A DNA stretch of 40,000 nt from an uncultured Methanomethylovorans sp. GTDB taxonomy: Archaea > Halobacteriota > Methanosarcinia > Methanosarcinales > Methanosarcinaceae. Both the position numbers and the translations under genes were made by a program. The stretch is taken from the NCBI RefSeq assembly GCF_963678545.2, contig NZ_OY782867.2, positions 2,368,913-2,408,912 of the forward strand, in the 5' to 3' direction. Below the pieces are notes generated by a model. It searched no databases. It had not been told where the DNA came from and saw nothing but the letters and a program-made list of their open reading frames with translations. Shown here piece by piece: positions 2,235-40,000 of the stretch. The first letter of the stretch is position 1. Each line of letters opens with the position of its first letter.

Positions 2235-3114
2235 GAGCCTGTATCAAAACTATAAATACTATTTCTCTGAATGTTATTGTGGGGATATGAATGGAATTCA
2301 GAGAACTCTCTGATGATCAATGGAAGTTTATAAAGCCACACTTGCCACCACAACCAATTACCGGAAGAAAGAGAGCTGATGACCGTAAGGTCATCAATGG
2401 TATTCTCTTTGTTCTGATAACAGGTTGCAGATGGGGAGATATGCCAGCTATTTATGATTCCCAGGCAACTGCCTGGAGAAGGCTGAAAAGGTGGTCAGAG
2501 GAAGGTATATGGAACGAGATAATGGAATCCCTTCGGGATTCCGCTTACCAGAAAGGTAAGTTCTCATTGGATACAGTGTGTATCGATAGCAGTTTCATCG
2601 AAACTAAAAAAGGGGAGATGACTCCTCGTACAACGGTCACAAGAAAAGAAAAGGCATAAAGATCCATGCATGTGTAAGTTGTGAAGGTTTTCCACTTACA
2701 ATCCAAATATCTTCTGGAAAAGAGCACGATAGACAGCACTTCATTGAAGTTATGGAGGATATTAAGGTTAAGACCGATGGAAGACCAAGGACAAGACCTC
2801 TTGAAGTTCTGGCAGACGCTGCGTACGACGATACAGAAATCAGGCAGTACTTAAGGTCCAGAGCTATCAAAAGCAACATACCGATCAATACAAGGAACAG
2901 TAAAAGAAAGAAAAGAGGAAGACCTACTCGATTTGATGAAGAAACATATCATTACAGAGGAACTATAGAACGATTCTTTGCATGGTTGAAGATGGGATTT
3001 AGAAAATTAGCAAGTAGATATGAACGTCTTAATGTGGTTTTCAAAGGATTGTTAGATATTGCATGTTTCCTGTTGTGTTGGAAAAAGGTGTGAGTGAAGT
3101 TTTGAAATAGGCTC
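2235..3114 (+). mobile_element. IS5-family insertion sequence (IS427/IS1031-like group), 880 bp
   Basis: The 17-bp terminal IRs are gagcctgtatcaaaact (2235-2251) and agttttgaaataggctc (3098-3114), matching 15 of 17. Flanking aat/aat is a possible 3-bp TSD. The element encodes a two-frame DDE transposase. Confidence 0.8.
2291..3093 (+). CDS. IS5-family transposase OrfAB, joined by a programmed -1 frameshift at the A6G run (2606-2612)
   Basis: OrfA (2291-2659) ends ...DSSFIETKKG. The -1 frame is open from 2608 and reads KRGDDSSYNGHKKRKGIKIHACV...ADAAYD...RGTIERFFAWLK, which continues into the tracked ORF 2752-3093. This is the typical split transposase of the DUF4096 + DDE_Tnp_1 type. Confidence 0.8.
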
Positions 3115-3326
3115 AATAAAAGATGATAGAAAAGCCATCGACTTGATTCATAATCTGTTTTATATTGTGTAACAAAACCTACAATCTTGAAGAACTTGAC
3201 AAGATTTAAAAACTCATGCATGTTTTGATAAGGCTAAGGAACTGGGATATAATGAGTAAATATCCCATATCAATTTTATAATAATCCTTCACCTAACCAC
3301 ACCAATGCAATTACCATCGAGCCACT

Positions 3327-3492
3327 GTGTGTTCCAATGTTACTATTGACTGGACTGTTCGTAATAATGTCCGTGTAGAGATGCGTGTGCTTGTGAAGCG
3401 CATACAGTATCACTGGACAGCAGGAGAAGGCTACTCAGGCTGTCTTGACGCAGGTAGAAGTGCTGTCACAGGAATGGGCAGCAGTAACTTGA
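3327..3492 (+). pseudogene. hsdR: Relic of the extreme C-terminus of a type I restriction enzyme R subunit (HsdR), frameshifted
   Basis: Frame 0 reads ...TIDWTVRNNVRVEMRVLVKRI. After a +1 shift near 3400 the next frame reads YSITGQQEKATQAVLTQVEVLSQEWAAVT*. Together these match the conserved HsdR C-terminal tail pattern (IDWT.R..VRA.LR..VKR.L.KY.YPPD..E.A...VL.QAE). No upstream HsdR body is present. Confidence 0.55.
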
Positions 3493-3609
3493 AAGGAATT
3501 TACAGCAAAATAGAAATACACAGCAAACTGATGGTAAACTGAGTTTTGAATCCACTTCAATAAGAATATAATATATACAGCATCTCTGGAAAACTGTATA
3601 TGGTTGGCC

Positions 3610-3879
3610 TTAAAGCTCAAAGTCATCTATAATTTTTAATATAACTTTATATTGTTTGAGGTATTCAAAACCTTTCTTTTTTAGCCTATAGTGTTGCTTG
3701 CAATCTATTGTATGAATTTCAACGAATCCTTTCTCTATTAATTCTGTTATATAGTAATCAAATTGACTTGATGACAAATTGGACTTACGAAGAAGAGGAG
3801 TTGGCCTAATGAGATTCTCATTTTTACTAATTAGAGACAAAATATCATATATTATCTCTAATCGTTCTCTTCTTTTCAT
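3610..3879 (-). CDS. Small winged-helix DNA-binding protein
   Basis: MKRRERLEIIYDILSLI...LLRKSNLSSSQFDYYITELIEKGFVE...YRLKKKGFEYL is a wHTH-like pattern. I chose the ATG at 3879, which overlaps the stop of the upstream membrane ORF (TAATG), rather than the tracked start at 3939. Confidence 0.55.
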   Translation of the reverse strand: MKRRERLEIIYDILSLISKNENLIRPTPLLRKSNLSSSQFDYYITELIEKGFVEIHTIDCKQHYRLKKKGFEYLKQYKVILKIIDDFEL

Positions 3880-4547
3880 TAAGTTTTGACCTCTTTCCAA
3901 ATAATTAAAAATAGTGCAATTTGAAAAAGAAACACACAAAGATCAATGAAAAGACTATGGTAAATAGGGTATCCAATCAATTGAATCAAGTTTATTGTGT
4001 AGGATAAAATGAGCAAATTGTAAACAATAAAATAGCTGAATACTTTAGAACTCTGCTTTGTTTTCTTATACATTGTGTAGAAGAAAAGTAGAGGAACAAA
4101 TAGAATAGGAAATGAAATGAAAGGGAATAGTATTAGCCCAAATATCACTATTAAGGGTATGGCTCTTTTATCATTTGCTAATATTCTATAAATCTTGGTG
4201 TGCTTTCTTTTGATATCTTCAAAGAAGAAAGTCATAATATAATTATATAAAAATAAAACTAAAACCACTACTAGAAAATGTAATATTATAATTTCTATTA
4301 TGTGTGGAAGATATAAGCTTTTAATATCATCAATTTGTACACTTTTTATTTGGTCAATTCTCAACAAATAGATAAAGAAAAATGAAAATATAAGAGACAT
4401 AAAAGAATTCTTGAAATATTTCAATCCTTCATATCCCGTTAATTCATAATATTTATTGAGTTGCCAGTATATAGAACCTAAAATAATCTCGATAACTAAT
4501 AGGAAAAAAGATGTGGCTAAAATGGTAATTTCTGGAGTGAAATACAT
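3879..4547 (-). CDS. Polytopic membrane protein of unknown function
   Basis: This 222-aa ORF has about 6 hydrophobic segments and is very AT-rich. It appears translationally coupled to the wHTH gene. Confidence 0.45.
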   Translation of the reverse strand: MYFTPEITILATSFFLLVIEIILGSIYWQLNKYYELTGYEGLKYFKNSFMSLIFSFFFIYLLRIDQIKSVQIDDIKSLYLPHIIEIIILHFLVVVLVLFLYNYIMTFFFEDIKRKHTKIYRILANDKRAIPLIVIFGLILFPFISFPILFVPLLFFYTMYKKTKQSSKVFSYFIVYNLLILSYTINLIQLIGYPIYHSLFIDLCVFLFQIALFLIIWKEVKT

Positions 4548-4653
4548 AATTATCTTTTTGTATAGTGTTCTACATTAGTTATCTAGCTTGAAATATATAG
4601 TTAGAGGTTTTGAGCATACATACACAAAACCTCAATCGTTCTTAAGGAAACTT

Positions 4654-10657: not shown

Positions 10658-10766
10658 AATATAGGACCAAAACTATCCGAAATAATTTCCTTTTTTATTG
10701 TTGTTTTAATATGAAAGCATTTAGATTACATTTGATGGAAAAATATAAGAGGATTCTGATTATAAG

Positions 10767-11975
10767 CAACTACAAAGCAGAGCACAGGCTATCAAAATCC
10801 TGGTAAATGCTACCAGTTACGGAATATTCATTGAACTTATCCCAGAAGATAAGACCAGTGACATACAGGTTTATGGCCTTGATTCTTTCAATACTTCAGA
10901 AAACAGGTTTGAAAAACCAGGAAACTATTATCATCCTCTGCTTGCTGTAATGATAACAGCAGCTTCCAGGCTGTTCCTTGCTATGGCTGAAACCAAATTA
11001 AAGGAACAGGGTGGGATTCATGCTTACATGGATACAGATAGTATCTTTGTTCCTCCTGAATATGCCCAGGATATGATAGATTATTTCCAACCACTTAATC
11101 CCTATAGCCTTGATATTCCATTGCTGAAGGCTGAAAAAGTGGATATGTGGTTTTATGGTATTTCCTCAAAACGCTATGCTCTGTACACTTATGAAAAAGA
11201 ACAGACTAAATTTATAGAAGGGGAAAGGTCTTTCAAATTACATGGTTTAGGGCATCTTACTAATCCATTCCCTAAGAATATACAGGACTGGCAGGCCCAG
11301 GTATGGGAAGATATACTAAGATTACACTACAAAACCATAAGTTCTGTAGATATTGAGGCTAAGTATTCTGGGGTATATGCTATTTCGAAGCTTACTGTTT
11401 CTACCCCCAGGGTGTTGGCCAGGTTTAAGAAACTTAATGAAAACAAAACCTGGGATCAACAAATAAAACCCTTCAACTTTTACATCCTAGGGTTCCAAAC
11501 CATAAAAGAAAATGGTAAATCTGTGAAACCCTTAGCCCCTTTCTCTACTAATCCCCAGGAAATAGTGTATGAGCCTTTCATTGATTATGAAACAGGAGAG
11601 ATTAAGCAAGGATCACATTACTTCAAACCACTAAGTAAAATCATAATGCAATATGTAGATCATCCAGAGAGTAAATTTGATGGTGATATTGGTATTCTGG
11701 AAAGAAAACATGTGCATGCTGACGGTATTATCTACATTGGGAAGGAAGCGAACAATATTGATGAACAGGCTCTTGATGTTAAGAAGGCTCAAGAATTTGT
11801 GAATAAAGAAGAGATAATGCAAATGATACTCGATTTATCACAAAAAGAAGCCGAAGTAAGAGGAGTATCAAGGTGTGTGTTTCAGGGGATTAAGCAAAGG
11901 ATAAGGGAAACGGGGGATGTGAATTTAGATACTCCTGCTGTGAGGAGATTGATGGGTAAAATATCATCAGTTTAA
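10767..11975 (+). pseudogene. polB: Family-B DNA polymerase fragment (motif B KILVNATSYG and motif C YMDTDS to the C-terminus); lacks the exonuclease domain and motif A
   Basis: Colinear nucleotide and protein similarity to the intact polB starts near 10767 (compare 20865). About 80% of residues are identical by eye over the 341-aa tracked ORF. The frame remains open but has no N-terminal two-thirds. Confidence 0.9.
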
Positions 11976-12284
11976 TGTTAGAACTTTATCTCGAATAAAA
12001 GATAAAAAATCTTTTACTTCAATAGAAGATACTCGATAAAATTTGTCATCGCCATGTGCAGCCCATGTTCCAATTTCATAATTTGCTCGTAGGCTATTTT
12101 CTAGAGGTTTATGAATCAAACCATTTTGGCGAAGAGTGATTATAATCTGATCAAACCTTTGGTTTGTGTCTATATTATTTTTTTTTGCAAATTCTTTGAT
12201 AGTGGCTTATATAATAACTCTTCCATACATTACTGCTGCTAAATCCAATTTCTGACTTAAAAATTCAAAAGCCTGATCCAGCAT
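11967..12284 (-). pseudogene. HEPN/DUF4145-like small gene interrupted by an in-frame TAA
   Basis: The minus strand reads MLDQAFEFLSQKLDLAAVMYGRVII*ATIKEF...FDQIIITLRQNGLIHKPLENSLRANYEIGTWAAHGDDKFYRVSSIEVKDFL...LN*. It is absent from the ORF track because the part after the stop has no start codon. Confidence 0.45.
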
Positions 12285-12308
12285 ATCACTAAAAACTAAT
12301 AGTTCTCT

Positions 12309-12683
12309 TTAATAAAAAAGGTCATCAGTCAAACTATTTTCGAGGGCATATGAAACAGCTTCTAATATACCGATCTGTATTTCAACTTGAGTTTTGTAGT
12401 AAGAGGTAGTAGTAGTTGTAGATTCTGAATATTTTCGCTCGTATGTTTTAATGAATTTTTTATAATATTCAGAATTTTCTCCAAATCTTAAACGCAAAAT
12501 GTTTTCGGCACTTGTTTGAAATTTTGTAATACTCCTGTACGGGGAAAATTCAACCTTATAAATAGAATTGAATGATTTAGATATGACACCCTCTATATCA
12601 TTTCCTGGTGTCATAGTTCTGATTATTGATTTTCCTTCTAGAATAATTTGCGATAATCCATTAGCTATGATTTTATCATTCAT
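12309..12683 (-). CDS. Hypothetical protein (cargo of the casposon remnant)
   Basis: This is a 124-aa ORF on the same strand as its neighbours. I recognise no motif in it. Confidence 0.35.
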   Translation of the reverse strand: MNDKIIANGLSQIILEGKSIIRTMTPGNDIEGVISKSFNSIYKVEFSPYRSITKFQTSAENILRLRFGENSEYYKKFIKTYERKYSESTTTTTSYYKTQVEIQIGILEAVSYALENSLTDDLFY

Positions 12684-12797
12684 GTTTATCTGTTAATACA
12701 AGTTTTGCATATAAAAAGTAATTGAGTTTCAATTTAAAAATTATTTCAAGATTTACGTCTCACGACTTTATTATACAATATCTAATGAATATTTAAA

Positions 12798-13505
12798 TTA
12801 TATTTTACTGAGTTGAGATGTGAGAGTAATCACATCATCTAGAAGTTGTTTTGCTTTATCTTCATCCAGTTTTAGATTGTATGTTCCATGTGCCACTTGA
12901 TTTTTTAAATTTCGTACCTCTTCAATTAATGCTTTTTCGGTAGCATTTATTAGTTTTTGCTGTTCTGCAAACTTGATTAAACGAGAAAAAGATATAGATC
13001 TATTATTTTCAATTGAGTCTGTTGTTGCTAATTTAGCATATAACGATTTTTCAATTGCATTATTAAGTTCGATAAGCATATAATCATAATATCCGCTTTT
13101 ATATACTCTTTTTGCATTTAAAAGTGAAATGGATTCAGAGTCTCTTGCTCTTTCTATAGCATCTCGATATCTTTCCATGTATGCCTTTAAAGTAATCTTC
13201 ATTGGAATATAAGCAAAAAGTGTGGAAAGCAATGATGTTATTATTTGAATTGCTATTTCGCCCGTATATCCGTTAAAATTCGTACTTTCAATATATGCAA
13301 CAATACTAGAGGAAATATATAGTAATAGAATAACTATTGGAAAAACAAAAATTGCAGTGGTATATAGTAAATCTGCTATTAAACTTGTATGAGAGAATAT
13401 GGACATTTTGACAAGCTTAAATGAACAATATTTCATATTATCTATTGCATAGAAATAAACAGATAAGAATAAAATAAAACCCATAGTTAAAAAGAGGGTA
13501 TACAA
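12798..13505 (-). CDS. Membrane-anchored protein with a C-terminal HEPN/DUF4145-like domain; possibly N-terminally frameshifted
   Basis: About 3 N-terminal TM segments are followed by a C-terminal ...LIKFAEQQKLINATEKALIEEVRNLKNQVAHGTYNL..DEDKAKQLL. The R198-x7-H206 motif lies at nt 12888-12914. A 49-codon TM-like ORF (13487-13636, GTG start) overlaps its TTG start in another frame, which hints at a frameshift. Confidence 0.5.
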   Translation of the reverse strand: MYTLFLTMGFILFLSVYFYAIDNMKYCSFKLVKMSIFSHTSLIADLLYTTAIFVFPIVILLLYISSSIVAYIESTNFNGYTGEIAIQIITSLLSTLFAYIPMKITLKAYMERYRDAIERARDSESISLLNAKRVYKSGYYDYMLIELNNAIEKSLYAKLATTDSIENNRSISFSRLIKFAEQQKLINATEKALIEEVRNLKNQVAHGTYNLKLDEDKAKQLLDDVITLTSQLSKI

Positions 13506-13845
13506 AGAGGTACTATAGGAAAAAAGTGAAATCTTAATGGGTATAAATAATCTTTATAATTTGGGAGAGCAAAGAGCAAAGCTAAAAAGCTGATAATAAA
13601 AATTACTTTCTCATTAGATTTCTTATCATCATCCACACATTCCTGTAAAATATAAACTTATATATACTTTTCTAAAAATAGGTATATGTCTTTAAGGGAA
13701 CTTTTTTCTATTTAGTAGTGTTTTTTAATTATTGGAACATTTCTAAAAGATTATTTTAACTCAAGTAACAAAAAAGCATGTTTAAAACAAATTGTAGGAG
13801 TATTGTTTTTTCGATAGAGAAGGGAATACAGTTTGTATTAATAAG

Positions 13846-13878
13846 AAGAGTATTGTTTTTTCACGTTACCTATATCCC
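13846..13878. repeat. Right terminal inverted repeat of the decayed casposon
   Basis: The reverse complement gggatataggtaacgtgaaaaaacaatactctt matches the left TIR of the intact element at 28 of 33 positions. Confidence 0.85.
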
Positions 13879-13892
13879 TTAAAATTTATGCG
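13879..13892. repeat. Target-site duplication copy (ttaaaatttatgcg), shared junction between the two casposons
   Basis: It is identical at 14 of 14 positions to 23810-23823 and is flanked on both sides by outward-facing TIR ends (...tatatccc | TSD | gggatata...). Confidence 0.9.
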
Positions 13893-13925
13893 GGGATATA
13901 GGTAACTCTAAAAAACAGAACTCTT
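13893..13925. repeat. Left TIR of the intact casposon
   Basis: The sequence gggatataggtaactctaaaaaacagaactctt pairs with the reverse complement of 23777-23809. Confidence 0.9.
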
Positions 13926-14022
13926 CTAAATAATTAAGACTGATGGCCAAGTCAATTTACAGATACTTTTAAATAATTGTACTACTTTTTTTAAATAAAC
14001 GTTAATATATTGTAAGTATAAT

Positions 14023-14496
14023 ATGAGTCAAAAGGTAATTACACTAGAGGAACGAGTTAAACATATAGAAAAAGCTTTGTTGTCTTTTATTTTCTTTACC
14101 TTATCTTGGATTCCATTATCAGATACAAGTAGCACTCTCTCTTTATATGGTGGATATGGAATTATCTTTTTTTTAGCATTTTTTATTGTATTCTCTTCTT
14201 TAACTACTTATTATTCTTCCCTCTTAGCTTTTTCAGTATTTTCAGATACTCCAAATAAAGTTGCTAGAATTATTATAAAATATAAAGAAAAAGTTTCAAT
14301 GACATTTGTATTTTTCATAATAATTAGTGCTATAATAGTTCTAAAATATTTGAGTTTTGATTTGAAAGAAATTGCTGGTAGCATAGTTCTTGTAGGGCTT
14401 GCATCTGTTATCTATAATTTCAAAAAAATCTGTAGCCGAATCTGTGAGCGTATTTCAAAAATCGATGAATATGCAGAAAAGAAAAATCTCAAATAA
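14023..14496 (+). CDS. Small 4-TM membrane protein (left-arm cargo of the casposon)
   Basis: 157 aa with four hydrophobic segments and a charged C-terminal tail. I recognise no family. Confidence 0.45.
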   Translation: MSQKVITLEERVKHIEKALLSFIFFTLSWIPLSDTSSTLSLYGGYGIIFFLAFFIVFSSLTTYYSSLLAFSVFSDTPNKVARIIIKYKEKVSMTFVFFIIISAIIVLKYLSFDLKEIAGSIVLVGLASVIYNFKKICSRICERISKIDEYAEKKNLK

Positions 14497-14684
14497 GCAT
14501 TTTTAATTTAACAGCTGAATCATTAATTCTGGAAGTATTAACACATACTGATTCTTAATTTCCAAGCACTTAACTCTTATTTTTTTCCTATGAATTAAAC
14601 AAGCATTATTGGGGATTATCATACCATGAAAACTTTTCATAGAAAGTATTATCTTTGCTATTTAAAGGAAATTACAAAAACTTG

Positions 14685-15614
14685 TTACGTGAATATGGAA
14701 ATCGGAATTACTTGAATGGCAGGTTTTTTAATTTCTGTAACCATTTCGGGAATCTCAACCCCTTGTTCTTGTATGCCTTCAAGTATCTTGCAAAATTCAT
14801 CAATAAACTGTTTATTTAATAATCCTAAACTTGTTTTTCTAAGCAGATTTATAGAAACTGTTGACTCTAACGGTATAGTGCGTATTACTTTTCCAAAAAT
14901 TCTGTATTCTCCGTCGATTAATTCTTCCATATTTTGGTTGATAAAAAAATCGGATTTGGCAGACAAAACTGCACTTATCTTTGTTCCACCTACAATTTGG
15001 CCAATAATTTCTGTTGATTTTGAGTTGTTAAGTTCAGTTGATAGTCCTTTTATTTTGCTTAATAGAATTTCATTTTCATTTTTATTTTGACTTGTGTTTT
15101 CTTTTCTTTTTCCTTTGATTGATGGGTGTGTTTCCTCTTCTATAAGTGGTAAAGCCATTTCCATTAATTGTGTAATTCTTTCAATACTATCAATTAATGG
15201 GTTTCGAGTAAGAATTGCTTTAAATTCTACAAACATTCCACTTTCTAATTTATTAAAATCTTCAATTGATAATAATTCGTGTACTAAACCTTTTTCTTTT
15301 AAACATATTCTTAATTTAGAAAACAATGATGATGGCGTATGGATCTTTTTCTTTGATAATTCTGTTTGCTCATCTGTATCTCTTTCTTGATTTAAACTCC
15401 CACTAAATGAAACACCGAACAAACTCAATAAATTACTTAGTCCAATTGTTGATCCTGCTGAAGCACTTTTTCTCTCCGAATCTATAATTGATGTTTTGAT
15501 TGTAGTTACATCTGACAATCCATCTTCAATTATTGCAAGTAAATCAAAAACAATCTGTTGATTCAAATAAATAGGAATACATAGATCAAGTGAATCCTCA
15601 ATAAGTTTTTCCAC
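14685..15614 (-). CDS. Hypothetical 309-aa soluble protein (left-arm cargo of the casposon)
   Basis: A long uninterrupted ORF lying convergent with 14023-14496. No catalytic motif is recognisable by eye. It has a central Lys/Glu/Asn-rich linker (...KGKRKENTSQNKNENE...). Confidence 0.5.
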   Translation of the reverse strand: MEKLIEDSLDLCIPIYLNQQIVFDLLAIIEDGLSDVTTIKTSIIDSERKSASAGSTIGLSNLLSLFGVSFSGSLNQERDTDEQTELSKKKIHTPSSLFSKLRICLKEKGLVHELLSIEDFNKLESGMFVEFKAILTRNPLIDSIERITQLMEMALPLIEEETHPSIKGKRKENTSQNKNENEILLSKIKGLSTELNNSKSTEIIGQIVGGTKISAVLSAKSDFFINQNMEELIDGEYRIFGKVIRTIPLESTVSINLLRKTSLGLLNKQFIDEFCKILEGIQEQGVEIPEMVTEIKKPAIQVIPISIFT

Positions 15615-15792
15615 CTTCTTTTTCCTCCATTAGTACTGAAAAATCCCTTTCAGTTGCTGTGTTAATTTACGTTTCAATAGTATTATACATCAATACATAG
15701 AGATTTTTAACATTAATGGTTAAGAGTACACGATATTAAGTATAAATTATGACAGTTACTTATAATAAGTAAGTTTTGTTCGACAGAAAAAA

Positions 15793-16992
15793 CTACCCTC
15801 TCCATACCTCCAACCTCTCCCTTACATGAGCATTCAAAGTAAATGGCTTATCAGCCTTTGCATTTTGTTTCATATAATGCAATGTGCCTTTTGAGAATCC
15901 CATGTTCTTCCATTCAGTATAGGAAATATTCAGTATCTTTTGTCTAATATCATCTGAATCCTGTCTATCAATAGTAAATTCAGGCTTACTGAAATCTATA
16001 GCCTTCCTTTTCTCAACAAGGTATTGAACTAGCTCTCTAGTTTTCAACAACAAAGCATAATTCCAGGTTACTGAGTTCTTATGATACGGAACTTTCTTAT
16101 TCATCCAATTCTGGAACTCTTCAGTTACTTTCTTTGCACCTGAAGGTTTTAGCCTGAGGGAATAGCTTTCTGTCCTGATAAAATCCTTATCTTCCATTTT
16201 CTTAGATTCAATAAGGCTGATTACTGCAAGATCAACAAGGAATCTGAAAGGCTCTTGAAGATCATAGGCTAAACTGTTCTTACTTGGATTCATTTCGTGT
16301 AAGAAACCTACATGAGCATCCAAACCAACTGTATTAATGGCTCTCAAACATTCAGCTTCGAGTAAAGCATAACCATAATTGAGCATAACATTAACCATAT
16401 CACCTGCTGTTACTGGCCTTCTATACTGGTCTATCCTGGAACAGAAATCATATTTATCAGGAATAGCTTTTGAAAATTCATTCCAGTATTTCCAGGCAAC
16501 ACCACCCTCAATACCCATTATTTCCCTTATGGTTTTAGCCTTCTTTAACTTCTCATTATCCTCAGAGAAATCATAAGCAATCTCAGGATACCTTTGTTTT
16601 AGGTAATCCAGAACCACCTGGGATTTATCAAACTTGGCTTCAATGAATTTCCTTGCTATGCTGATTCTGGTTTCTTCATCCTCAAAAGCATGGTATTGAG
16701 CAAACTTTGTTTTTACATTGGTACTTTCAGGAGGAAGCATTGTTGTTAAGAGCTTACCATCCCAATTAAGGATAGAAACCTGTACATTGTGTTTCATTAA
16801 CCATTTAACAGCATCCAGAGTAAGGTTTCCATTCCTGCCATAGATAACAATGTTATCCAAATCCATTCTTCTTGGAGAGAATACATATTCTTGTGGTTCT
16901 TCAGTGGTTGAAGTTCTCCCGTCTTTGATATGGAGTTTTGCACTATTAACCCTCATATCAATTCCATGACCACTAAGAAGCAATAATTTCAT
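15793..16992 (-). CDS. cas1: Casposase (solo Cas1-family integrase with a C-terminal HTH)
   Basis: The Cas1 core is NVMLNYGYALLEAECLRAINTVGLDAHVGFLHEMNPSKNSLAYDLQEPFRFLVD, containing the catalytic E...H...E/D triad pattern. A C-terminal extension ...ILNISYTEWKNMGFSKGTLHYMKQ has an HTH pattern. I chose the start at MKLLLLSGHG (ATG 16992, GGGGTG 7 nt upstream) over the tracked 17016. No cas2 or CRISPR array is nearby. Confidence 0.9.
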   Translation of the reverse strand: MKLLLLSGHGIDMRVNSAKLHIKDGRTSTTEEPQEYVFSPRRMDLDNIVIYGRNGNLTLDAVKWLMKHNVQVSILNWDGKLLTTMLPPESTNVKTKFAQYHAFEDEETRISIARKFIEAKFDKSQVVLDYLKQRYPEIAYDFSEDNEKLKKAKTIREIMGIEGGVAWKYWNEFSKAIPDKYDFCSRIDQYRRPVTAGDMVNVMLNYGYALLEAECLRAINTVGLDAHVGFLHEMNPSKNSLAYDLQEPFRFLVDLAVISLIESKKMEDKDFIRTESYSLRLKPSGAKKVTEEFQNWMNKKVPYHKNSVTWNYALLLKTRELVQYLVEKRKAIDFSKPEFTIDRQDSDDIRQKILNISYTEWKNMGFSKGTLHYMKQNAKADKPFTLNAHVRERLEVWRG

Positions 16993-17047
16993 AATTAGCA
17001 CCCCTACTGTACACAAAAATTGTTTAATTTTACAATGCTGTTAAGCG

Positions 17048-17953
17048 TTAAAGCTTTTTTGGCTTTGTAGAAATGCTCATTTGAACAATATATGTAACCT
17101 TGACATACCTGTCAAGGTTATGCACTAATAGTTTCAATTTAACCTCTTTTGCTTGATTCCAATACTTTTTTGCCTTCACTTCTTCCCCGTATTTCCTTTT
17201 CAGAACAGAGAACATCGTTTCTACAAGATTTCTGCAATGGTACAATATTTCCTCAAACTCATCGATCATTTTTCTACGATACTTACCCTTGATCTTCTTC
17301 CTTTTCCTTTCTCTCAAAGGAATCATAGCTACTGCGTCTAGTTCTTCCCTTACTAGAGAATGTATAGCTTCAGAATCGTAACCTTTGTCCATAAGGTAAA
17401 ACTTTGATTGGCGATTTTTATGACATTGCCGTAGCAATGTCATCGCATGCTTTGCATCATGGATAGGCTTACCAGATATCTTAAAACCAGTGATAATAAA
17501 CTTCTTTGTATCAATGGAAATACTCACTTTTAGGAATGATCTACGTTTCTTTCCAGTCCTAAAAGAGTAATAGTAGCTACAGTGACCACTCGTAAATCCA
17601 CTCGAATCAATGGCAATTATCTCTATTTTTTCGCCATATGAATAGAACAGTTTTAGTGTTTGCTGTAACAACGATCTGAAAAGAATTGACCTAAGTCTAG
17701 TTATAAACTTGTGAAGTGTGGTATAATGTGGAACCTCTTTTAAACCAATTCTTAACTTCAAACTCTCCATTAATTCAACAAGTTCAACAATACTTCTGTA
17801 ATCTACATTAAGATATTCTTTTAACAAAATCAAGGTCAATAGCTGGTGTTGTGTATATTTCCTTTTCGAATATTTGCAACTATAGATCGGCAGGTGTGAT
17901 TTTCCTGATACAGCTAAAGCTGTATCAACAAACTTTAAGTACTTATTTGACAA
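17048..17953 (-). CDS. IS4/IS5-superfamily DDE transposase
   Basis: 301 aa with ...AIDSSGF...[12 protein letters not shown]...[19 protein letters not shown].... The ORF reads through the IR, and its stop lies in the flanking DNA. Confidence 0.85.
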
Positions 17954-18060
17954 AACACAATCATCCCCTTTGTGTTTCAGTGGAAAGTAATACTCAGGGG
18001 ATTTATTCTTTTTAAATTATTAGGTCAAAATAAAAGCAAAAGTAGCATTTCTACAGAGCC
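17061..18060 (-). mobile_element. IS5-family (ISH1-group-like) insertion sequence, 1000 bp, nested in the casposon
   Basis: The terminal IRs are ggctttgtagaaatgct (17061-17077) and agcatttctacagagcc (18044-18060), matching 16 of 17. The 8-bp direct repeat gctttttt occurs at 17053-17060 and 18061-18068. Confidence 0.85.
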
Positions 18061-18266
18061 GCTTTTTTGGTGATTATTATAAGTAAAGATTAACAGCAAA
18101 AGTTGGTTTAGTATATAAATCATCTCATTTAATAATGCCAATAGATACTGTTTTTTGAGATTACTTTCGCCGTGCTATACTGTCTCTATTTATATTAAAA
18201 CAGTTTATTTGCTATCTACTACGCCACCCGTAATGATAGCAACCCTGGCGTTGGAGATAGAAAAAC

Positions 18267-18416
18267 ATGAAACAAAAAACAGAATATGGACGTTTTGTCC
18301 TGACATTACGCCCTTTCATAAAGGGAAAATTGGAACAATTATCAGAAAAGTTTGGATGCTCTCAGGCTGAAGTAGTCAGAATAGCATTAGTGAAACTCTG
18401 GGAGGAAGAGAAATGA
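18267..18416 (+). CDS. Ribbon-helix-helix (CopG/Arc-like) small DNA-binding protein, 49 aa; not in the ORF track
   Basis: MKQKTEYGRFVLTLRPFIKGKLEQLSEKFGCSQAEVVRIALVKLWEEEK has a beta-strand followed by two helices, the RHH pattern. Its TGA overlaps the ATG of the next gene (ATGA at 18413-18416). Confidence 0.6.
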   Translation: MKQKTEYGRFVLTLRPFIKGKLEQLSEKFGCSQAEVVRIALVKLWEEEK

Positions 18417-19054
18417 GCAGACCTGTTTTCTCCAAAGACCACCGAACTTATGGTGAATGGCTCAAAGCTCAACCCAGGGATAGCAGATATGCAAAAGAGA
18501 TCATCAAGAAACATAACCTGTTTCCAGATAAGAGCCTGAATCAGCTTAGAAACCTCAGAATAGCTGATTATGATAACAGTAAGATGGCCTGGAAAAGCCT
18601 TACCTCTCAACAGAAAAGTGATAGGAAACGATCACTTGAAATTCTGAGAAATATGAGAAAGGGAGGAAATCTTACTGAGATAACTGAAAAATTAGGAGTA
18701 AACAGACAATTTGCACTCAAAAACCTGGGGAACTATCTCTACAAGGATAAAGGCAAATGGACTGTTACAGCTACAGATAAGATTGAAACTCAGATGCTAT
18801 TCTATAGCAGGGATAAAGGCCACATATCCATAGTGACTGCAAGCTCAAAAGACAGGTCATTGATCGGAAAATACATGGCTTATGTGAACAAAGCCCTGAA
18901 ACACAATGATCCTTCTGTACTTGATGAGTTCAGGAATCTCAAAATAATAGATGCTGAAGGAAAAGAGCATCATTTTGAAACCGATCTTGATAAACTGTAT
19001 GAGATAGAGGAAGCGCAGGAAGAACCAGAGTTCTTGGAGATATACCAGAGTTAA
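18413..19054 (+). CDS. Casposon-associated basic protein with a putative central HTH
   Basis: 213 aa. The segment ...RKRSLEILRNMRKGGNLTEITEKLGVNRQFALKNLG... is HTH-like. It lies in an operon with the HNH and polB genes. Confidence 0.5.
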   Translation: MSRPVFSKDHRTYGEWLKAQPRDSRYAKEIIKKHNLFPDKSLNQLRNLRIADYDNSKMAWKSLTSQQKSDRKRSLEILRNMRKGGNLTEITEKLGVNRQFALKNLGNYLYKDKGKWTVTATDKIETQMLFYSRDKGHISIVTASSKDRSLIGKYMAYVNKALKHNDPSVLDEFRNLKIIDAEGKEHHFETDLDKLYEIEEAQEEPEFLEIYQS

Positions 19055-19066
19055 GGAGTTGATGCT

Positions 19067-19396
19067 ATGGACAAAAACGAATATCAAAAAAGTATCAAGA
19101 AACAGCAGAGAGAAGGAAAAACAACTATTTGTTGTTCAACATGTGGAGTAACAGATTCTTCAATTATTGAAATGCATCATATCTTTGGTCGGAACAATTC
19201 TGAGAAAACAGTTCCTTTATGCAAGAATTGTCATGCTAAAATTACATATCAACAGAATAAGCTTGCACCCAAAATAAGATCTGTTAATGCATCCAGTGAG
19301 GAAAAGAGAAGATTCCTGTTTGTTTCTATGGGCGGCATTTTAAGGGTTATTTCAGACCAACTGCTTACATTTGGTTTTGAAGGTGATTTTTCATGA
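19067..19396 (+). CDS. HNH endonuclease
   Basis: CCSTCGV...EMHHIFGRNN...PLCKNCHAKI shows the CxxC...HH...N...CxxCH zinc-finger HNH signature. Its stop overlaps the polB start (ATGA). Confidence 0.8.
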   Translation: MDKNEYQKSIKKQQREGKTTICCSTCGVTDSSIIEMHHIFGRNNSEKTVPLCKNCHAKITYQQNKLAPKIRSVNASSEEKRRFLFVSMGGILRVISDQLLTFGFEGDFS

Positions 19397-22059
19397 GTAA
19401 GATTGCTGTTAGAGGATATACTCAGAAGGTAACGGGGCCTTCTATTAAGGCCCCTTTTAAGGCCCTAAAACACCCTTTAAGGTTTAGCAGGGTATTAGTT
19501 TTTGATACTGAAACCACCATTAATCATTATCAGAATCTTAAAATAGGGTACTTTAAGATTTATCAAAAAGGGTATATTCAGCATGAGGGTTTAGTTTATA
19601 CCCCTAATACCTTAACAGAAAAGGAAATTAAGGCCCTTCAGGATTATTCAAATAAGACTAATATTGCCCTTTATACTCATGATGAGTTCATTGATGATGT
19701 ATTTTATCCTGAAGTGTTTAAACTAAAAACCCTTTGTATAGGGTTTAATCTTCCCTTTGACATCAGCAGGATAGCAAAGGATACAGGAATATCCAGAGGC
19801 AAGAATAAAGGAGGGTTTACTTTTACCCTTTCAGAAAACAGGTTTAACCCTCCTGTTATTGTAAAAAAGCTAGGTAATGCTTACAGTTTCAAGTTTACCA
19901 CTACTAAAGAGAATAAAGGAAAAGAGTATTTCCAAGGGTATTTCCTTGATGCTCAAACTTTAGCTAAAGTGCTCTTACAATCAAACCATATTTCACTTGC
20001 AAAAGCAGGAGAGAAGCTCAATACTAAAAACAGAAAAATGAAAGATATAGAACATGGAAGGGTAACTAAGAGGTATATTGATTACTTGATCCAGGATGTA
20101 GCCACTACTTACGAAGTGTATCAGAAGTTAATCGAAGAGCTTGATTTATATCAAATAGATATCTCACCAACACAAATATACAGCGCCGCTTCACTTGGAA
20201 AACATACTTTAAAGCAATTAGGAATCAAGCCATTCAAAGAGCAAGTACCTGAGTTTCCCGATTCCTTGATCGGCAACATTATGACTGCTTATTATGGTGG
20301 TAGGTGTGAATGTAAAATTAGGAAAGTTCCAACAAAAGTTACTACTCTTGATTTTATCAGTATGTATCCTACTGTTACCATGCTACTTGATTTTTGGAAA
20401 TTTATTATTGCAGAGGATATTGAAACAAAAGAAGTAACTGAAGAAATTAAGGTTCTGCTAAATAACATAAACCTATCTTATCTGCAAAATAAGGACAACT
20501 GGAAAGACTTTATTGTTATGGTTAAGCTAAGACCTGATGAGGATATTTTACCCACCAGGATGAATTACAAAGGTGATGGATCGGCTTTCAATGTGGGTAT
20601 TAATTACCTTACCTCAAACAGTGAATTGTGGTATTCATTACCTGATGTTATAGCTTCAGTTATCTTAAATGGAAAAGTACCTGAGATTGTAGAAGCTGTA
20701 AGATTTATTCCTATAGGTATTCAGAAAGGATTAAGGAAAACTAAGGTTTTAGGAATTGATATTGATCCATCAAAGGATAATTTAATTCAGCTCTTAGTTG
20801 AGGAAAGGCAGAAGATAAAGCAAGGTTTGAAAAGCAAAAGCAGAGACGATCCAGAATATCAGCATTTACAAAGCAGAGCACAGGCTATAAAAATCCTGGT
20901 AAATGCTACCAGTTACGGAATATTCATTGAACTTATCCCAGAAGATAAGACCAGTGATATACAAGTTTTTGGCCTTGATTCTTTCAATACTTCAGAGAAC
21001 AGGTTTGAGAAACCAGGAAATTATTATCATCCTCTGCTTGCTGTAATGATAACAGCAGCTTCCAGGCTGTTCCTTGCTATGGCTGAAGCCAAATTAAAAG
21101 AACTGGGTGGGATTCATGCTTACATGGATACAGATAGTATCTTTGTTCCTCCTAAACATGCTCAGGATATAATAGATTATTTCCAACCCCTTAACCCCTA
21201 TAGCCTTGATATTCCATTACTCAAAGCTGAAAAAGTGGATGTGTGGTTTTATGGTATAGCCTCAAAACGCTATGCTCTGTATAATCTTAAGGATAATAAA
21301 ATTGAGTTTATGGAAGATGAGAGATCTTTCAAACTGCATGGATTAGGCCATCTTACAAATCCATTCCCAAAGGATATAGAAGATTGGCAGGCTCAGATAT
21401 GGGAAGATATACTAAGTTTACACTATGGGTACATTACAGAACTTGATATTGAAGATAAGTATTCTAATCTATATGCAATTTCAAGACTAACTGTTTCAAC
21501 CTCTAATGTATTAAGCAGATTCAAAAAGGTTAATCAGGGAAAAACCTGGGATCAGCAAATCAAACCATTCAACTTTTTCTTAGTAGGATTCCAGAGCATA
21601 GAAGAGAATGATAAGGCTGTAAAACCCTTATTACCTCACTCCAATAACCCTCAGAGTGTTGTTTATGAGCCTTTCATTGATTATGAAACAGGAGAGATAA
21701 AGCAAGGATCACATTACTTTAAACCATTAAGTAAGACCATTATGCAATATGTGGATCATCCAGAAAGCAAGTTTGATGGTGATATAGGTATTCTGGAAAG
21801 AAAGCATGTGTATGTTGATGGTGTAATCTACATAGGAAAGGAAGCAAATAATATTGATGAACAAGCTCTTGATGTTAAGAAGGCTCAGGAGTTTGTGAAT
21901 AAAGAAGATATCATGCAGGTGGTACTTGCTATACCACAAAAAGAAGCTGAAGCAAGAGGAGTTTCAAGGAGTGTGTTTCAGGGAATTAAGAAGAGGATAA
22001 GGGAAAGTGGGGATGTGAATTTGGATACTCCTGGGGTGAGGAGATTGATAAATAAGTAA
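19393..22059 (+). CDS. polB: Family-B DNA polymerase (casposon PolB)
   Basis: Motifs seen: Exo I VFDTETT, Exo II GFNLPFDISRI, Exo III YLIQDVATTYEVY, motif A TLDFISMYPT, motif B KILVNATSYGIF, motif C YMDTDSIF, and KRYALY. Confidence 0.95.
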   Translation: MSKIAVRGYTQKVTGPSIKAPFKALKHPLRFSRVLVFDTETTINHYQNLKIGYFKIYQKGYIQHEGLVYTPNTLTEKEIKALQDYSNKTNIALYTHDEFIDDVFYPEVFKLKTLCIGFNLPFDISRIAKDTGISRGKNKGGFTFTLSENRFNPPVIVKKLGNAYSFKFTTTKENKGKEYFQGYFLDAQTLAKVLLQSNHISLAKAGEKLNTKNRKMKDIEHGRVTKRYIDYLIQDVATTYEVYQKLIEELDLYQIDISPTQIYSAASLGKHTLKQLGIKPFKEQVPEFPDSLIGNIMTAYYGGRCECKIRKVPTKVTTLDFISMYPTVTMLLDFWKFIIAEDIETKEVTEEIKVLLNNINLSYLQNKDNWKDFIVMVKLRPDEDILPTRMNYKGDGSAFNVGINYLTSNSELWYSLPDVIASVILNGKVPEIVEAVRFIPIGIQKGLRKTKVLGIDIDPSKDNLIQLLVEERQKIKQGLKSKSRDDPEYQHLQSRAQAIKILVNATSYGIFIELIPEDKTSDIQVFGLDSFNTSENRFEKPGNYYHPLLAVMITAASRLFLAMAEAKLKELGGIHAYMDTDSIFVPPKHAQDIIDYFQPLNPYSLDIPLLKAEKVDVWFYGIASKRYALYNLKDNKIEFMEDERSFKLHGLGHLTNPFPKDIEDWQAQIWEDILSLHYGYITELDIEDKYSNLYAISRLTVSTSNVLSRFKKVNQGKTWDQQIKPFNFFLVGFQSIEENDKAVKPLLPHSNNPQSVVYEPFIDYETGEIKQGSHYFKPLSKTIMQYVDHPESKFDGDIGILERKHVYVDGVIYIGKEANNIDEQALDVKKAQEFVNKEDIMQVVLAIPQKEAEARGVSRSVFQGIKKRIRESGDVNLDTPGVRRLINK

Positions 22060-22186
22060 CATAAAAAAAGCCTTCTCTTTGAATGCTTATCTTAAATAAA
22101 CTCAATCTTTTACAACAATATTGATACTAACTATTATATATTATAAAACTTCTACTAATTATACAACTTAATAATGTGGGATTATT

Positions 22187-23584
22187 ATGAGTACTACTGA
22201 AATTATTCCTTCAGGCCAGAATAAAATAGGTGCAGATGTTGATGGTTTTTCAAAATCACTGGAATCTTACCTAAAGTCTCTTGGTTTACCTGCAAAAAAT
22301 GTGCTTGTAGAAATAAAGGAACGACAGATAGTTATTGCAAATATGCCTTTCATTATTGAATCTTTAGACCCTTCAATTATGGAAGAAGCCTATTATATTT
22401 CAAAATTCATTGCATCATGTGGTGTAGGCTTATTTGATGCTGCTTTGAATTATCTTTGGAATGAAACAATTGTAAATTTAAGACAAAAAATAGTTCTTTT
22501 TGATTTAGATTACTTTTTTAATGTTTTAAACAAGGAAACCTACAATAGTGAAGAAGACTTACAGAAAATTGAAGATTGGGAGTTAATAAAAGGCTGCCTT
22601 AAAGTAGGCATACTTTCTGATATTGGGTTCAAACATTTAGATTACATAAGAGATATGAGGAATTTTGCAAGTGCAGCCCATCCAAATAACACTGAATTGA
22701 CAGGCTTAATGTTGGCTAATTGGTTACAAACCTGTATCAATGAAGTACTTTCAAAGGAACCGTCTAGTTCCGCTCTACAAATTAAAAAATTATTACCTAG
22801 TGTTAGACAAGAAACATTGACAGAATCAGATTCCAGGCCGATTATTTCAAATATTGAACGTCTACCACAAGATCTTGCAAATTCGTTATTGCTTGCATTA
22901 TTTGGAATGTATACAAATGAAGACATCTTACCCGTTGTCAGAAATAATATACAATATCTTGCAAAAGCGACTTGGTTGAAATCCGATACAAAAACAAAAA
23001 AAGCTATAGGACTAAGATATTCTAATTTTTCTGCAAATGCACAAGTTGTGAGAAAAAAGTTTGCAAGAGATTTTTTAATTCTTGTTGAGGGATTAGCTTA
23101 TTTGACAGAAGATCAAAGAAGCATAGAATTAAGAGAATGTTTAGAAGCACTTATTAATGCACATTATGGACATAATAATTTCTATAACGAAGAACCACAT
23201 GCGAAAATAATCTATAACTATATACGTGACAATTATAATATACCCGAAAATGTCCGACCATTATATGTATCATCCATTTTAACTTGCAAATTAGGTAATT
23301 CGTATGGACCTTCATATTCTGCTGAACCTTATTATGATCAAATGATTGATAGGTTTGATGAGACCGAAATTAGGGAATTATTAAGGCTATTAAAAGACAA
23401 AGAATTTACTGTTATATTCCAAGATAACTCAAGAGCATTTAGATTTAAAAATGTAGTCTCTAAATTAGCAGATAATTTGTCCAATGCTATATTGAAACAA
23501 GCACTTGAAAAATTAAAGGAAAGCTCAAATACTGAGTTACAAAATGGACGAGCATATCTTAATATAAAGAATTTGATTGAATAA
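22187..23584 (+). CDS. Hypothetical 465-aa protein with a HEPN-like Rx6H motif (right-arm cargo of the casposon)
   Basis: ...LIKGCLKVGILSDIGFKHLDYIRDMRNFASAAHPNNTEL... contains R158-N-x5-H165 at nt 22658-22681. It sits between polB and the right TIR, the same position as the unrelated cargo of the decayed copy. Confidence 0.5.
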   Translation: MSTTEIIPSGQNKIGADVDGFSKSLESYLKSLGLPAKNVLVEIKERQIVIANMPFIIESLDPSIMEEAYYISKFIASCGVGLFDAALNYLWNETIVNLRQKIVLFDLDYFFNVLNKETYNSEEDLQKIEDWELIKGCLKVGILSDIGFKHLDYIRDMRNFASAAHPNNTELTGLMLANWLQTCINEVLSKEPSSSALQIKKLLPSVRQETLTESDSRPIISNIERLPQDLANSLLLALFGMYTNEDILPVVRNNIQYLAKATWLKSDTKTKKAIGLRYSNFSANAQVVRKKFARDFLILVEGLAYLTEDQRSIELRECLEALINAHYGHNNFYNEEPHAKIIYNYIRDNYNIPENVRPLYVSSILTCKLGNSYGPSYSAEPYYDQMIDRFDETEIRELLRLLKDKEFTVIFQDNSRAFRFKNVVSKLADNLSNAILKQALEKLKESSNTELQNGRAYLNIKNLIE

Positions 23585-23776
23585 TACGTCTTTATCTTGA
23601 GGACTGTATTATTCTTTATATTTTTTCATTTCTTCGATTTGTCGTATAATCAAAAATTTGTTATGGAAAGATGAAATGTTTAAAAATGGTGACTAATATA
23701 AATAAATAGCATAAGTTATGTTTTTCGTTTTTCTATTTGAGAGTAAAGGTAACAAAACATAGAATTAAAAAAGTTT

Positions 23777-23809
23777 AACAGTTCTGTTTTTTCTCGTTAA
23801 CTATATCCC
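23777..23809. repeat. Right TIR of the intact casposon
   Basis: The reverse complement gggatatagttaacgagaaaaaacagaactgtt matches the left TIR at 28 of 33 positions. Confidence 0.9.
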
Positions 23810-23823
23810 TTAAAATTTATGCG
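23810..23823. repeat. Target-site duplication copy overlapping the tRNA-Leu 3' end
   Basis: ttaaaatttatgcg is identical to 13879-13892. Its last 4 nt are the final acceptor-stem bases plus the discriminator of the tRNA. Confidence 0.9.
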
Positions 23824-23903
23824 AGGGGTGGGATTTGAACCCACGAAATCCTTCGATACCAGATCTTAAGTCTGGCGCCTTTGACCAGCTGGGCAACCCT
23901 CGC
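23820..23903 (-). tRNA. tRNA-Leu(UAA): tRNA-Leu, anticodon UAA (class II, long variable arm)
   Basis: The minus strand reads GCGAGGG-TT-GCC-CAGCTGGTCAAA-GGC-G-CCAGA-CTTAAGA-TCTGG-TATCGAAGGATTTC-GTGGG-TTCAAAT-CCCAC-CCCTCGC-A. The cloverleaf is complete, the T-loop is canonical, and no CCA is encoded. Confidence 0.9.
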
Positions 23904-23988
23904 ATGAAGAATAGTTGTTGTGGATTTATCCCAGTATGGACCTACCCCATAATTAAAGTTAAGTTACTTAAGCCTTATTCTTCTATCT

Positions 23989-39430: not shown

Positions 39431-40000
39431 TTAACCAATAGTACAATCAATTGCAGTTTTAATTTTATTGTTCAATCCCTCTGCAACTCCATTGTTGGGA
39501 TCATTCTTCATCGCTTCAAGAATTCCCTGCGCATGTTTTTTGATTACTTTTGTCACTGAATCTTTTCCATTTTCAATATATATGACTCTTGCTTCATCCA
39601 TGCCATAAATCAAAGTGATGTAGTTATGACCTTTTTTTACAGTAATCTCGTCTACTCCAATTATTTTAAGGTCTGAGATACCTCTTTTCTCTTTTGCTTT
39701 GTATACATAATGGCTAAGTATTCTCCAGACAGAATCCTCATGAGAACAAGGTAAATCCCAGGTGGAGTAGGGATAGTTGAGGGGTCGATGGCCGCACATT
39801 ATAACGTCATAGGAGTGCCAATTCCTATCACAGTAGTGGTGATATTGATCTACCGTATTGTATCTTTCTGGGTACCCAGTATCCTGGGATTTCCAGTGGA
39901 CTTTTATCTACAACAATTGTCGTTGCCAAACTTCCCTTCAATTATACAGCACATATATAGTATTTTAGTACGCTGCCAGTTTCTATTTTCTTCACACATA
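39431..40000 (-). pseudogene. ISL3-family transposase relic (internally deleted; runs off the window)
   Basis: ...LKIIGVDEITVKKGHNYITLIYGMDEARVIYIENGKD... (the ISL3 DDE N-terminal part) is joined directly to ...NNGVAEGLNNKIKTA... (the ISL3 C-terminal tail). The frame stays open upstream of the tracked ATG, to about 39900. Confidence 0.55.

Follow-up and report, generated by a model that had tools for sequence, protein, structure and literature searches.

The stretch from position 13893 to position 23809 of the window (the whole 40-kb stretch of DNA analyzed here, from an uncultured Methanomethylovorans sp.) is almost certainly a family-2 casposon inserted at the 3′ end of a tRNA-Leu(UAA) gene. 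The element is real and structurally complete, and it is best regarded as a good example of its kind rather than a discovery. Its identification is carried by direct observations: the anatomy of the element, its homology to known casposons, the retention of the catalytic residues of its integrase, an empty site in a relative, and an uninterrupted insertion sequence (IS) target in a related casposon. In a feature-by-feature comparison, all defining features of Methanosarcinales family-2 casposons were found, save for profile matches to RHH and HTH proteins, and no evidence contradicting the identification was encountered. The initial annotation had described the region as a 9.9-kb casposon. Its identity has held up, but its description as a simple unit has not, as a nested 1000-bp IS and an adjoining truncated second casposon had both been overlooked.

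The borders of the element are formed by terminal inverted repeats (TIRs) and the two copies of a target site duplication (TSD) of 14 bp, the right-hand one of which runs into the tRNA gene:

13879-13892, no strand: left copy of the 14-bp TSD, the junction shared by the truncated older casposon and the intact casposon
13893-13925, plus strand: left TIR, GGGATATAGGTAACTCTAAAAAACAGAACTCTT, with a terminus conserved in related loci
23777-23809, minus strand: right TIR, GGGATATAGTTAACGAGAAAAAACAGAACTGTT in the minus-strand reading, with an identical 33-mer at the tandem casposon junction of the related locus L044
23810-23823, no strand: right copy of the 14-bp TSD, whose final 4 nt are the 3′ end of the tRNA
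23820-23903, minus strand: intact tRNA-Leu(UAA), the integration target (Rfam RF00005, 56.5 bits, model positions 1-71)

The arms of the TIRs are 85% complementary (28/33). The chance of at least 28/33 complementarity at two predetermined positions is ~4e-12 (binomial, local base composition). The match between the ends noted in the initial annotation persists on formal alignment, and the 14-nt TIR terminus GGGATATAGGTAAC is kept in ~20 related loci. Likewise, the identical direct repeat claimed at both ends is present: the 14-mer TTAAAATTTATGCG occurs in exactly two copies in the window, and both abut the TIRs. On the tRNA strand the TSD reads CGCATAAATTTTAA, starting with CGCA and continuing into an AT-rich remainder. 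The sole tRNA in the window, predicted by ARAGORN as tRNA-Leu(taa) at 23819-23904 on the minus strand, ends on its own strand in ...CCCTCGCA. Given the tRNA boundary at 23820 and the tRNA-strand reading of the repeat, the right TSD overlaps the tRNA by exactly 4 nt, CGCA. The ARAGORN and Rfam predictions thereby bear out the proposal that an intact tRNA-Leu(UAA) takes its last 4 nt from the right-hand repeat. The block is also more AT-rich than its flanks, as had been remarked, with a GC content of 0.331 against 0.414 on the right and 0.380 on the left; the cargo ends of the element are lowest (0.28-0.29).

The integrase of the element is encoded in its left half:

15793-16992, minus strand: casposase of 399 aa, a Cas1-family integrase extended at its C-terminus by an HTH (PF01867, E=1.3e-70)

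Among PDB sequences, the best match of this protein (phmmer) is the crystallized casposase of Methanosarcina mazei, 6OPM (660 bits, E=1.3e-197, residues 1-398). The alignment takes in the C-terminal extension, which in casposases of family 2 is an HTH of about 60-70 residues, and CRISPR Cas1 proteins are without such an extension. The best match to a CRISPR Cas1, that of Archaeoglobus fulgidus (4N06), reaches 129 bits (E=1e-36) and is confined to residues 37-331. The residues E162, H232 and E247, which are catalytic in the M. mazei casposase, are found at identical numbering, and R191 and R192, which contact DNA in that enzyme, are conserved (PMC6977970). The E/H/E pattern and the C-terminal HTH of the initial annotation are thus both confirmed. 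The ORF (open reading frame) list gave a protein of 407 aa starting at TTG; the 399-aa version starting at ATG (16992) aligns with 6OPM from residue 1. In NCBIfam, the generic cas1 model alone passed, and every CRISPR-subtype model stayed far below its cut-off (score/cut-off: I-B 148/304, I-C 158/385, I-D 161/385, I-E 50/216, II 76/120). Judged by these sequence comparisons, the window Cas1 groups with casposases and not with CRISPR Cas1, and the check that had been proposed thus went in favor of a casposase.

The same results bear on the idea that cas1 remains from a CRISPR-cas adaptation module that has decayed and that the repeats around it are coincidental. This idea has so little probability that it can practically be set aside, even though Pfam and NCBIfam label the protein "CRISPR-associated Cas1". 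Besides the failed subtype cut-offs, it is contradicted by the full-length alignment to 6OPM including the C-terminal HTH (E=1e-197) and by the conservation of the TIR/TSD architecture in 11 complete relatives. It is also contradicted by the lack of companions that had been noted for cas1. No CRISPR-like repeat array and no CRISPR-DR family of Rfam were found in the 40-kb window, nor was cas2 among the window ORFs scanned with Pfam; five right-flank ORFs, not scanned directly, were judged by their counterparts in a sister Methanomethylovorans metagenome-assembled genome (MAG; locus L028), which carry non-cas Pfam families.

The remaining core genes of the casposon form a divergent operon:

18267-18416, plus strand: 49-aa RHH-like ORF, first in the operon (Pfam RHH_3 at E=0.11 only)
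18413-19054, plus strand: 213-aa conserved casposon protein, its position and size conserved in the related locus L039
19067-19396, plus strand: HNH endonuclease of 109 aa, with a CxxC...HH...CxxCH pattern in translation
19393-22059, plus strand: family B DNA polymerase (PolB) of 888 aa, uninterrupted (PF03175, E=5.7e-15)

Two pairs of these genes overlap in an ATGA, in which the stop codon of one contains the start of the next: the RHH-like ORF and the 213-aa ORF at 18413-18416, and the HNH and PolB genes at 19393-19396. The 49-aa ORF has the same position and length in L039. The 213-aa ORF has nucleotide homology to at least 10 related casposons, and its product showed no significant match in Pfam, NCBIfam or PADLOC. 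The HNH protein has weak profile matches to RecA_dep_nuc (E=2.5e-4) and to the HNH of ZorE (E=1.3e-4). In PolB, a script located ExoI (FDTET), ExoIII (YLIQD), motif A (DFISMYP), motif C (YMDTDS) and KxY (KRY); ExoII (NLPFD) and motif B (KILVNATSYG) were missed by the strict patterns and are readable in the translation. In the coupled RHH-HTH-HNH-PolB module that had been described, the coupling, the HNH pattern and the full set of PolB motifs stand, and for the RHH and HTH labels there is no significant profile match.

A tRNA target, a PolB gene and variable cargo are also features common to pipolins (PMC11551731). The stretch could accordingly be another PolB-encoding integrative element, a pipolin-like element or a provirus with tRNA att sites, that carries cas1 by chance. 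This is very unlikely. A search of 13893-23809 turned up neither a tyrosine or serine recombinase nor genes for a capsid or for packaging, the element is bordered by inverted repeats with a short 14-bp duplication and not by long direct att repeats, and both the ends and the TSD match biochemically defined casposase substrates.

Further evidence that the stretch is a casposon comes from its relatives. The window Cas1 protein was compared with one genome per species, which yielded 27 related loci, chiefly in Methanolobus, Methanosarcina and Methanomethylovorans, with ends that carry GGGATATAGGTAAC or near variants. Eleven further complete elements, 7.5-16 kb in length, share the TIR terminus and are flanked by perfect 14-bp TSDs. 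In most related loci TGCG, which reads CGCA on the tRNA strand, closes the flanking 14-mer, with L004 as an exception. A tRNA-Leu(UAA) is found in six related loci and a tRNA-Leu(UAG) in one, and any tRNA that abuts a TSD is one of these; direct abutment is seen in L002, L005, L008 and L039. The closest relatives, L039 (AMWB02003596.1) and L044 (AMWB02123877.1), belong to the same assembly, GCA_000315315.2. L039 holds a complete element of 8390 bp at the same tRNA-Leu, with the TSD AATTTTTCGATGCG and 88-91% nucleotide identity to the window; its PolB is split into ORFs of 147 aa and 677 aa. L044, from another Methanomethylovorans, is a tandem junction located at the equivalent TSD of tRNA-Leu, with a right TIR identical at 33/33 positions and a Cas1 N-terminal region that is 94.8% identical at the nucleotide level. 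When metagenomes were scanned with the TIR for other insertion sites, only L044 was recovered and no new site.

The initial annotation had called for an empty tRNA-Leu(UAA) site with a single copy of the 14-mer. Contigs with candidate empty sites were retrieved via the flanking MBL-fold hydrolase, 92% identical to that of the window. Such a site was found in L031, in a related genome that is not the same strain: after the tRNA-Leu(UAA) comes just one copy of TTTAAAATTATGCG, which agrees with the window TSD at 12/14 positions, with no TIR and with a UDG gene upstream. The single TTTAAAATTATGCG and the missing TIR indicate that the 14-mer is not naturally duplicated. L028, which is co-linear with the right flank of the window, has no TIR at the same tRNA flank either. 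At positions 1725-9400 of L028, the place of the casposon is taken by genes for an HFX_2341_N/HTH protein, a TerB_N+TerB_C protein, a BrxC/BrxD-like ATPase and a ResIII/DEAD helicase. This cluster looks like a defence island, which suggests that the tRNA-Leu site is a general hot spot for foreign DNA. The left flank of tRNA-Leu(UAA) is hypervariable among the sister genomes.

Within the casposon lies a second mobile element:

17061-18060, minus strand: nested IS5-family IS of 1000 bp (NF033579, E=1.7e-70, 238 bits against a cut-off of 140; PF01609)
17048-17953, minus strand: transposase ORF of the IS, 301 aa from TTG in the ORF list and 304 aa in RefSeq

The IS is bounded by 22-nt inverted repeats (17061-17082 and 18039-18060) that match at 19/22 positions, and by an 8-bp target duplication, GCTTTTTT, at 17053-17060 and 18061-18068. 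Its insertion point is 61 bp upstream of the start codon of cas1, in the stretch that separates this gene from the divergent operon, and all reading frames have been left intact. In the related casposon L039, co-linearity with the window breaks off at 17062 and resumes at 18061, with a single GCTTTTTTGG at the junction, and L002 is likewise uninterrupted at this site. The assignment to IS5 therefore rests on a DDE transposase, inverted repeats, an 8-bp duplication and an uninterrupted target in relatives. The IS is present in many copies, as at least 8 variant transposases are encoded on the same 2.93-Mb contig, and the protein cluster of its transposase at 90% identity has 71 members. A scan of the IS region for sigma-70 promoters and terminators is uninformative for an archaeon. 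The nested IS represents a natural experiment that could show how well a casposon tolerates disruption of its divergent promoters.

To the left of the intact element, beyond the end of a host MatE gene at 10657, lies what is left of an older casposon in tandem:

10748-13878, plus strand: older casposon remnant, truncated at its 5′ side, with a PolB fragment, two cargo ORFs and a right TIR
12309-12683, minus strand: remnant cargo ORF between the PolB fragment and the right TIR
12798-13505, minus strand: remnant cargo ORF, weakly HEPN-like (PF05168, E=7e-4, below the cut-off)

The remnant's right TIR (13846-13878) matches each TIR of the intact element at 28/33 positions, and 10748-11953 is 85% identical at the nucleotide level to 20844-22049. 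The PolB fragment (10749-11975) comprises the C-terminal ~408 codons, in frame and free of stops. No left TIR, no cas1 and no third TSD copy (14-mer search, up to 3 mismatches) were found for the remnant, and since both the left TIR and the third TSD are lacking it is a truncated and not a second complete element. The layout of the locus is thus a truncated casposon, a TSD, the intact casposon, and a TSD that runs into the tRNA. The 14-bp TSD common to both elements lies at the center of a palindrome (13829-13942; 50 nt, 80% complementary) made up of the remnant's right TIR and the intact casposon's left TIR, and this palindrome is a potential cruciform or hairpin site.

Head-to-tail junctions of the same form (TIR, 14 bp, TIR) are found in L002/L015, L003, L009, L014 and L044. 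In L015 and L002 (NZ_CAXXKW010000002.1, an uncultured Methanolobus sp.), at least three casposons with the common TSD GAAAACAAAGTGCG lie head to tail by one tRNA-Leu(UAA). A different arrangement is seen in Methanomethylovorans MAG 282 and three independent ENA assemblies (L035 at 1160-1240, and also L036/L013, L037 and L038). Here a right TIR is followed by CATAAAAAAATGCG, GGGATATATACAA, a further CATAAAAAAATGCG and the tRNA-Leu(UAA). GGGATATATACAA is a 13-nt solo-TIR stub between two TSD copies, and it equals the first 13 nt of a Methanolobus TIR variant (L015, L019). It could be the footprint of an excision or a deletion.

The integration of the present element may be pictured by analogy with M. 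mazei. The M. mazei casposase has been shown to act as a tetramer that joins each TIR 3′-OH to target strands 14 bp apart, at a target set by CGCA together with the rest of the TSD, which is AT-rich, and ~30 bp of tRNA-Leu upstream (PMC6977970). Its sites share a 14-bp TSD, an invariant CGCA, an AT-rich remainder and the last 4 bp of tRNA-Leu (PMC4779613, PMC6977970), a pattern that the window element follows exactly. A tetramer of the window casposase would thus bind the TIR ends, and the terminal 3′-OH groups would attack the two target strands 14 bp apart. The target would start at the CGCA that ends the tRNA, run into AT-rich downstream DNA and be read together with ~30 bp of the tRNA. Gap repair would then yield the 14-bp TSD and regenerate the tRNA 3′ end. 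PolB is presumed, here as in the literature on self-synthesis, to replicate the element, a role ascribed to it by inference, and accessory or regulatory functions are presumed for the HNH protein and the small DNA-binding proteins.

The order of events at the locus can be proposed on similar grounds. An earlier casposon, ~85% related to the present one, would have inserted at this site. The present element would then have entered the tRNA-proximal TSD copy, giving a head-to-tail tandem with a shared TSD, after which the distal older copy would have lost its left part by deletion. Later still, the multicopy IS5-family IS would have entered the intergenic region between cas1 and the RHH operon. 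A second insertion is expected at the tRNA-proximal TSD because only that copy still adjoins the tRNA recognition sequence, and from this we infer that the tRNA-proximal element is the younger. A younger proximal copy would agree with the finding that the proximal copy is intact and the distal one truncated. The locus can be viewed as a natural record of repeated use of a target, and it fits the need of the casposase for ~30 bp of tRNA beside the TSD.

Is the casposon still able to move? Certain observations speak against the picture of a fully typical element that is mobile today. No profile supports the label "RHH" for the 49-aa protein or "HTH" for the 213-aa protein, the IS insertion may disturb the promoters of cas1 or of the operon, and the TIRs are mismatched at 5/33 positions. 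An account built on the latter two would see a complete but immobile fossil, silenced by the IS5 element and the five TIR mismatches and kept as a passenger at tRNA-Leu. We take this as a real possibility that falls somewhat short of being probable. The only intergenic promoter region that the core genes have is indeed the one in which the IS at 17061-18060 lies, no more than 28/33 TIR positions agree, and the neighboring casposon copy is clearly dead. Even in M. mazei, excision of MetMaz-C1 is very rare, at 1e-5 to 1e-9 per genome (PMC10359463). Against a fossil stand the core ORFs, all of full length and with intact catalytic residues, and the TSD copies, which are still 14/14 identical. Furthermore, cas1 keeps 68 bp of its upstream sequence and the RHH gene ~200 bp, including a block conserved with L002 (TTAATTTTAyAATG). 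The TIR mismatches mostly fall at positions that differ between the ends in relatives with perfect TSDs; positions 15-17, for instance, also differ between the ends in several complete relatives of this kind. On either account the element is structurally complete.

Besides its core genes, the casposon carries cargo at both ends:

14023-14496, plus strand: cargo ORF of 157 aa with long hydrophobic stretches (no significant family)
14685-15614, minus strand: cargo ORF of 309 aa, DUF6414 (PF19952, E=2.5e-35, full length)
22187-23584, plus strand: cargo ORF of 465 aa, all-alpha, of a widespread family (no family match)

Judging from its hydrophobic stretches, the 157-aa product is probably a membrane protein. 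The DUF6414 protein had no match in PADLOC. The 465-aa protein has 1974 homologues at E<=1e-3 in archaea and bacteria, which are without precomputed Pfam assignments. Homologues that are ~45-49% identical occur in Acinetobacter, Paenibacillus, Metabacillus and Methanoregula, and in the two genomes inspected (Acinetobacter and Methanolacinia) the homologue is a stand-alone gene among housekeeping genes. Its AlphaFold2 model is confident and all-alpha (pLDDT 87.1, pTM 0.79), and an invariant RNxxSAAHPN motif spans residues 158-167. No match was found in Pfam, NCBIfam or PADLOC, a profile search of PDB sequences was empty, and Foldseek searches of PDB and BFVD returned nothing below E=0.1, only generic helical-repeat noise. 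A link to HEPN proteins, suggested by RNxxSAAH, was considered and rejected: hhalign showed no relation to the HEPN-like ORF of the remnant, and Abi_C was touched by only 1/26 family members (E=0.04). A role of the 465-aa protein in defence would be a guess. If the cargo proves to be directed against viruses, casposons would be vehicles of new defence genes.

Could the tRNA-Leu(UAA) 3′ flank be more than a repeatedly used site? It might serve in Methanomethylovorans and Methanolobus as a "landing pad" for casposons, at which elements pile up, turn over and ferry widely exchanged accessory genes. The suggestion draws on the arrays of at least three casposons, the solo-TIR stubs and the truncated copies at this site in relatives, and on the uncharacterized cargo (the 465-aa family, DUF6414 and the weakly HEPN-like ORF of the remnant). 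It is speculative, and we regard it as rather unlikely. If it were true, the 13-nt stub in the sister genomes would be a natural footprint of excision or deletion, with a bearing on the excision mechanism. In M. mazei, MetMaz-C1 is rarely excised in vivo, and one clean site is then left behind (PMC10359463); the stub bears on a model of persistent duplication plus footprint as opposed to such a single clean empty site.

Other traces of foreign DNA are found in the flanks of the window. At 2291-3093, an IS4/IS5-type transposase is split over two adjacent ORFs, the first with DUF4096 (E=1e-25) and the second with the C-terminal part of DDE_Tnp_1. It may be expressed by frameshift or belong to a decayed IS, and its sequence is not related to that of the nested IS5. 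Between this IS fragment and an ABC-transporter operon lies a low-GC block (3000-4600, GC 0.30-0.33), perhaps a further foreign insert, which encodes a winged-helix HTH_45 protein (3610-3939, minus strand) and, in a 222-aa ORF, a protein without a family. Close to the window's right edge, 39431-39799 holds a 122-aa fragment of an ISL3-family transposase.

The importance of the locus is modest because the 14-bp TSD, the CGCA, the 4-nt overlap with tRNA-Leu and tandem arrays have already been published for Methanosarcina (PMC4779613, PMC6977970). It challenges no current model and leaves the understanding of casposons unchanged; its value is that of a well-annotated example and a pointer to unexplored cargo, with tandem decay and a nested IS as extra layers. 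In the literature searched, no report of Methanomethylovorans as a casposon host was found, and the host range of tRNA-Leu-targeting family-2 casposons is extended to this genus, with very clean conservation of the catalytic and DNA-contacting residues, the TIR terminus, the CGCA of the target and the spacing of 14 bp.

Among known systems, the closest are the family-2 casposons of M. mazei at tRNA-Leu (for example MetMaz1FA1A3-C2; Krupovic et al. 2016, PMC4779613; Hickman et al. 2020, PMC6977970). They share with the window element a casposase with a C-terminal HTH, a core that takes in HNH and PolB genes, TIRs of ~31-33 bp, a 14-bp TSD with CGCA and the inclusion of the last 4 bp of tRNA-Leu in the TSD. 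The window element differs from them in its host genus, its cargo (DUF6414, the 157-aa membrane ORF and the 465-aa family), its nested IS5 and the interior of its TIRs. Tandem arrays with one degraded copy have been described in Methanosarcina sp. 2.H.T.1A.* (PMC4779613). The window tandem resembles those of Methanosarcina sp. 2.H.T.1A.3/.6/.8/.15 and 2.H.A.1B.4 in that one copy is inactivated (Krupovic et al. 2016), and L009, from strain 2.H.T.1A.6, shows the same tandem junction as the window. The manner of inactivation is different. In the dead copy of the Methanosarcina tandem PolB has internal stops, whereas that of the window is cleanly truncated at its 5′ side: its cas1 and its left TIR are missing along with PolB's N-terminal half, and the frame of the remaining PolB is still open. 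The Methanolobus array of at least three elements is longer than the two-element tandems of Krupovic et al. (2016).

More distant systems share fewer of these features. The CRISPR Cas1-Cas2 integrase has the Cas1 fold, the catalytic triad and a staggered integration that duplicates a repeat in common with the casposase. It differs in its use of Cas2 and an array and in a duplication of 25-50 bp as compared with the 14 bp of the casposon, and its similarity to the window Cas1 is at E=1e-36 or weaker. AciBoo-C1 of Aciduliprofundum boonei (Hickman & Dyda 2015; Beguin et al. 2016, 2019), by its description, is like the window element a family-2 casposon with site-specific integration at a tRNA 3′ end and TSDs of 14-15 bp. 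Its target is tRNA-Pro, and a shorter tRNA flank is needed (the TSD plus 15 bp).

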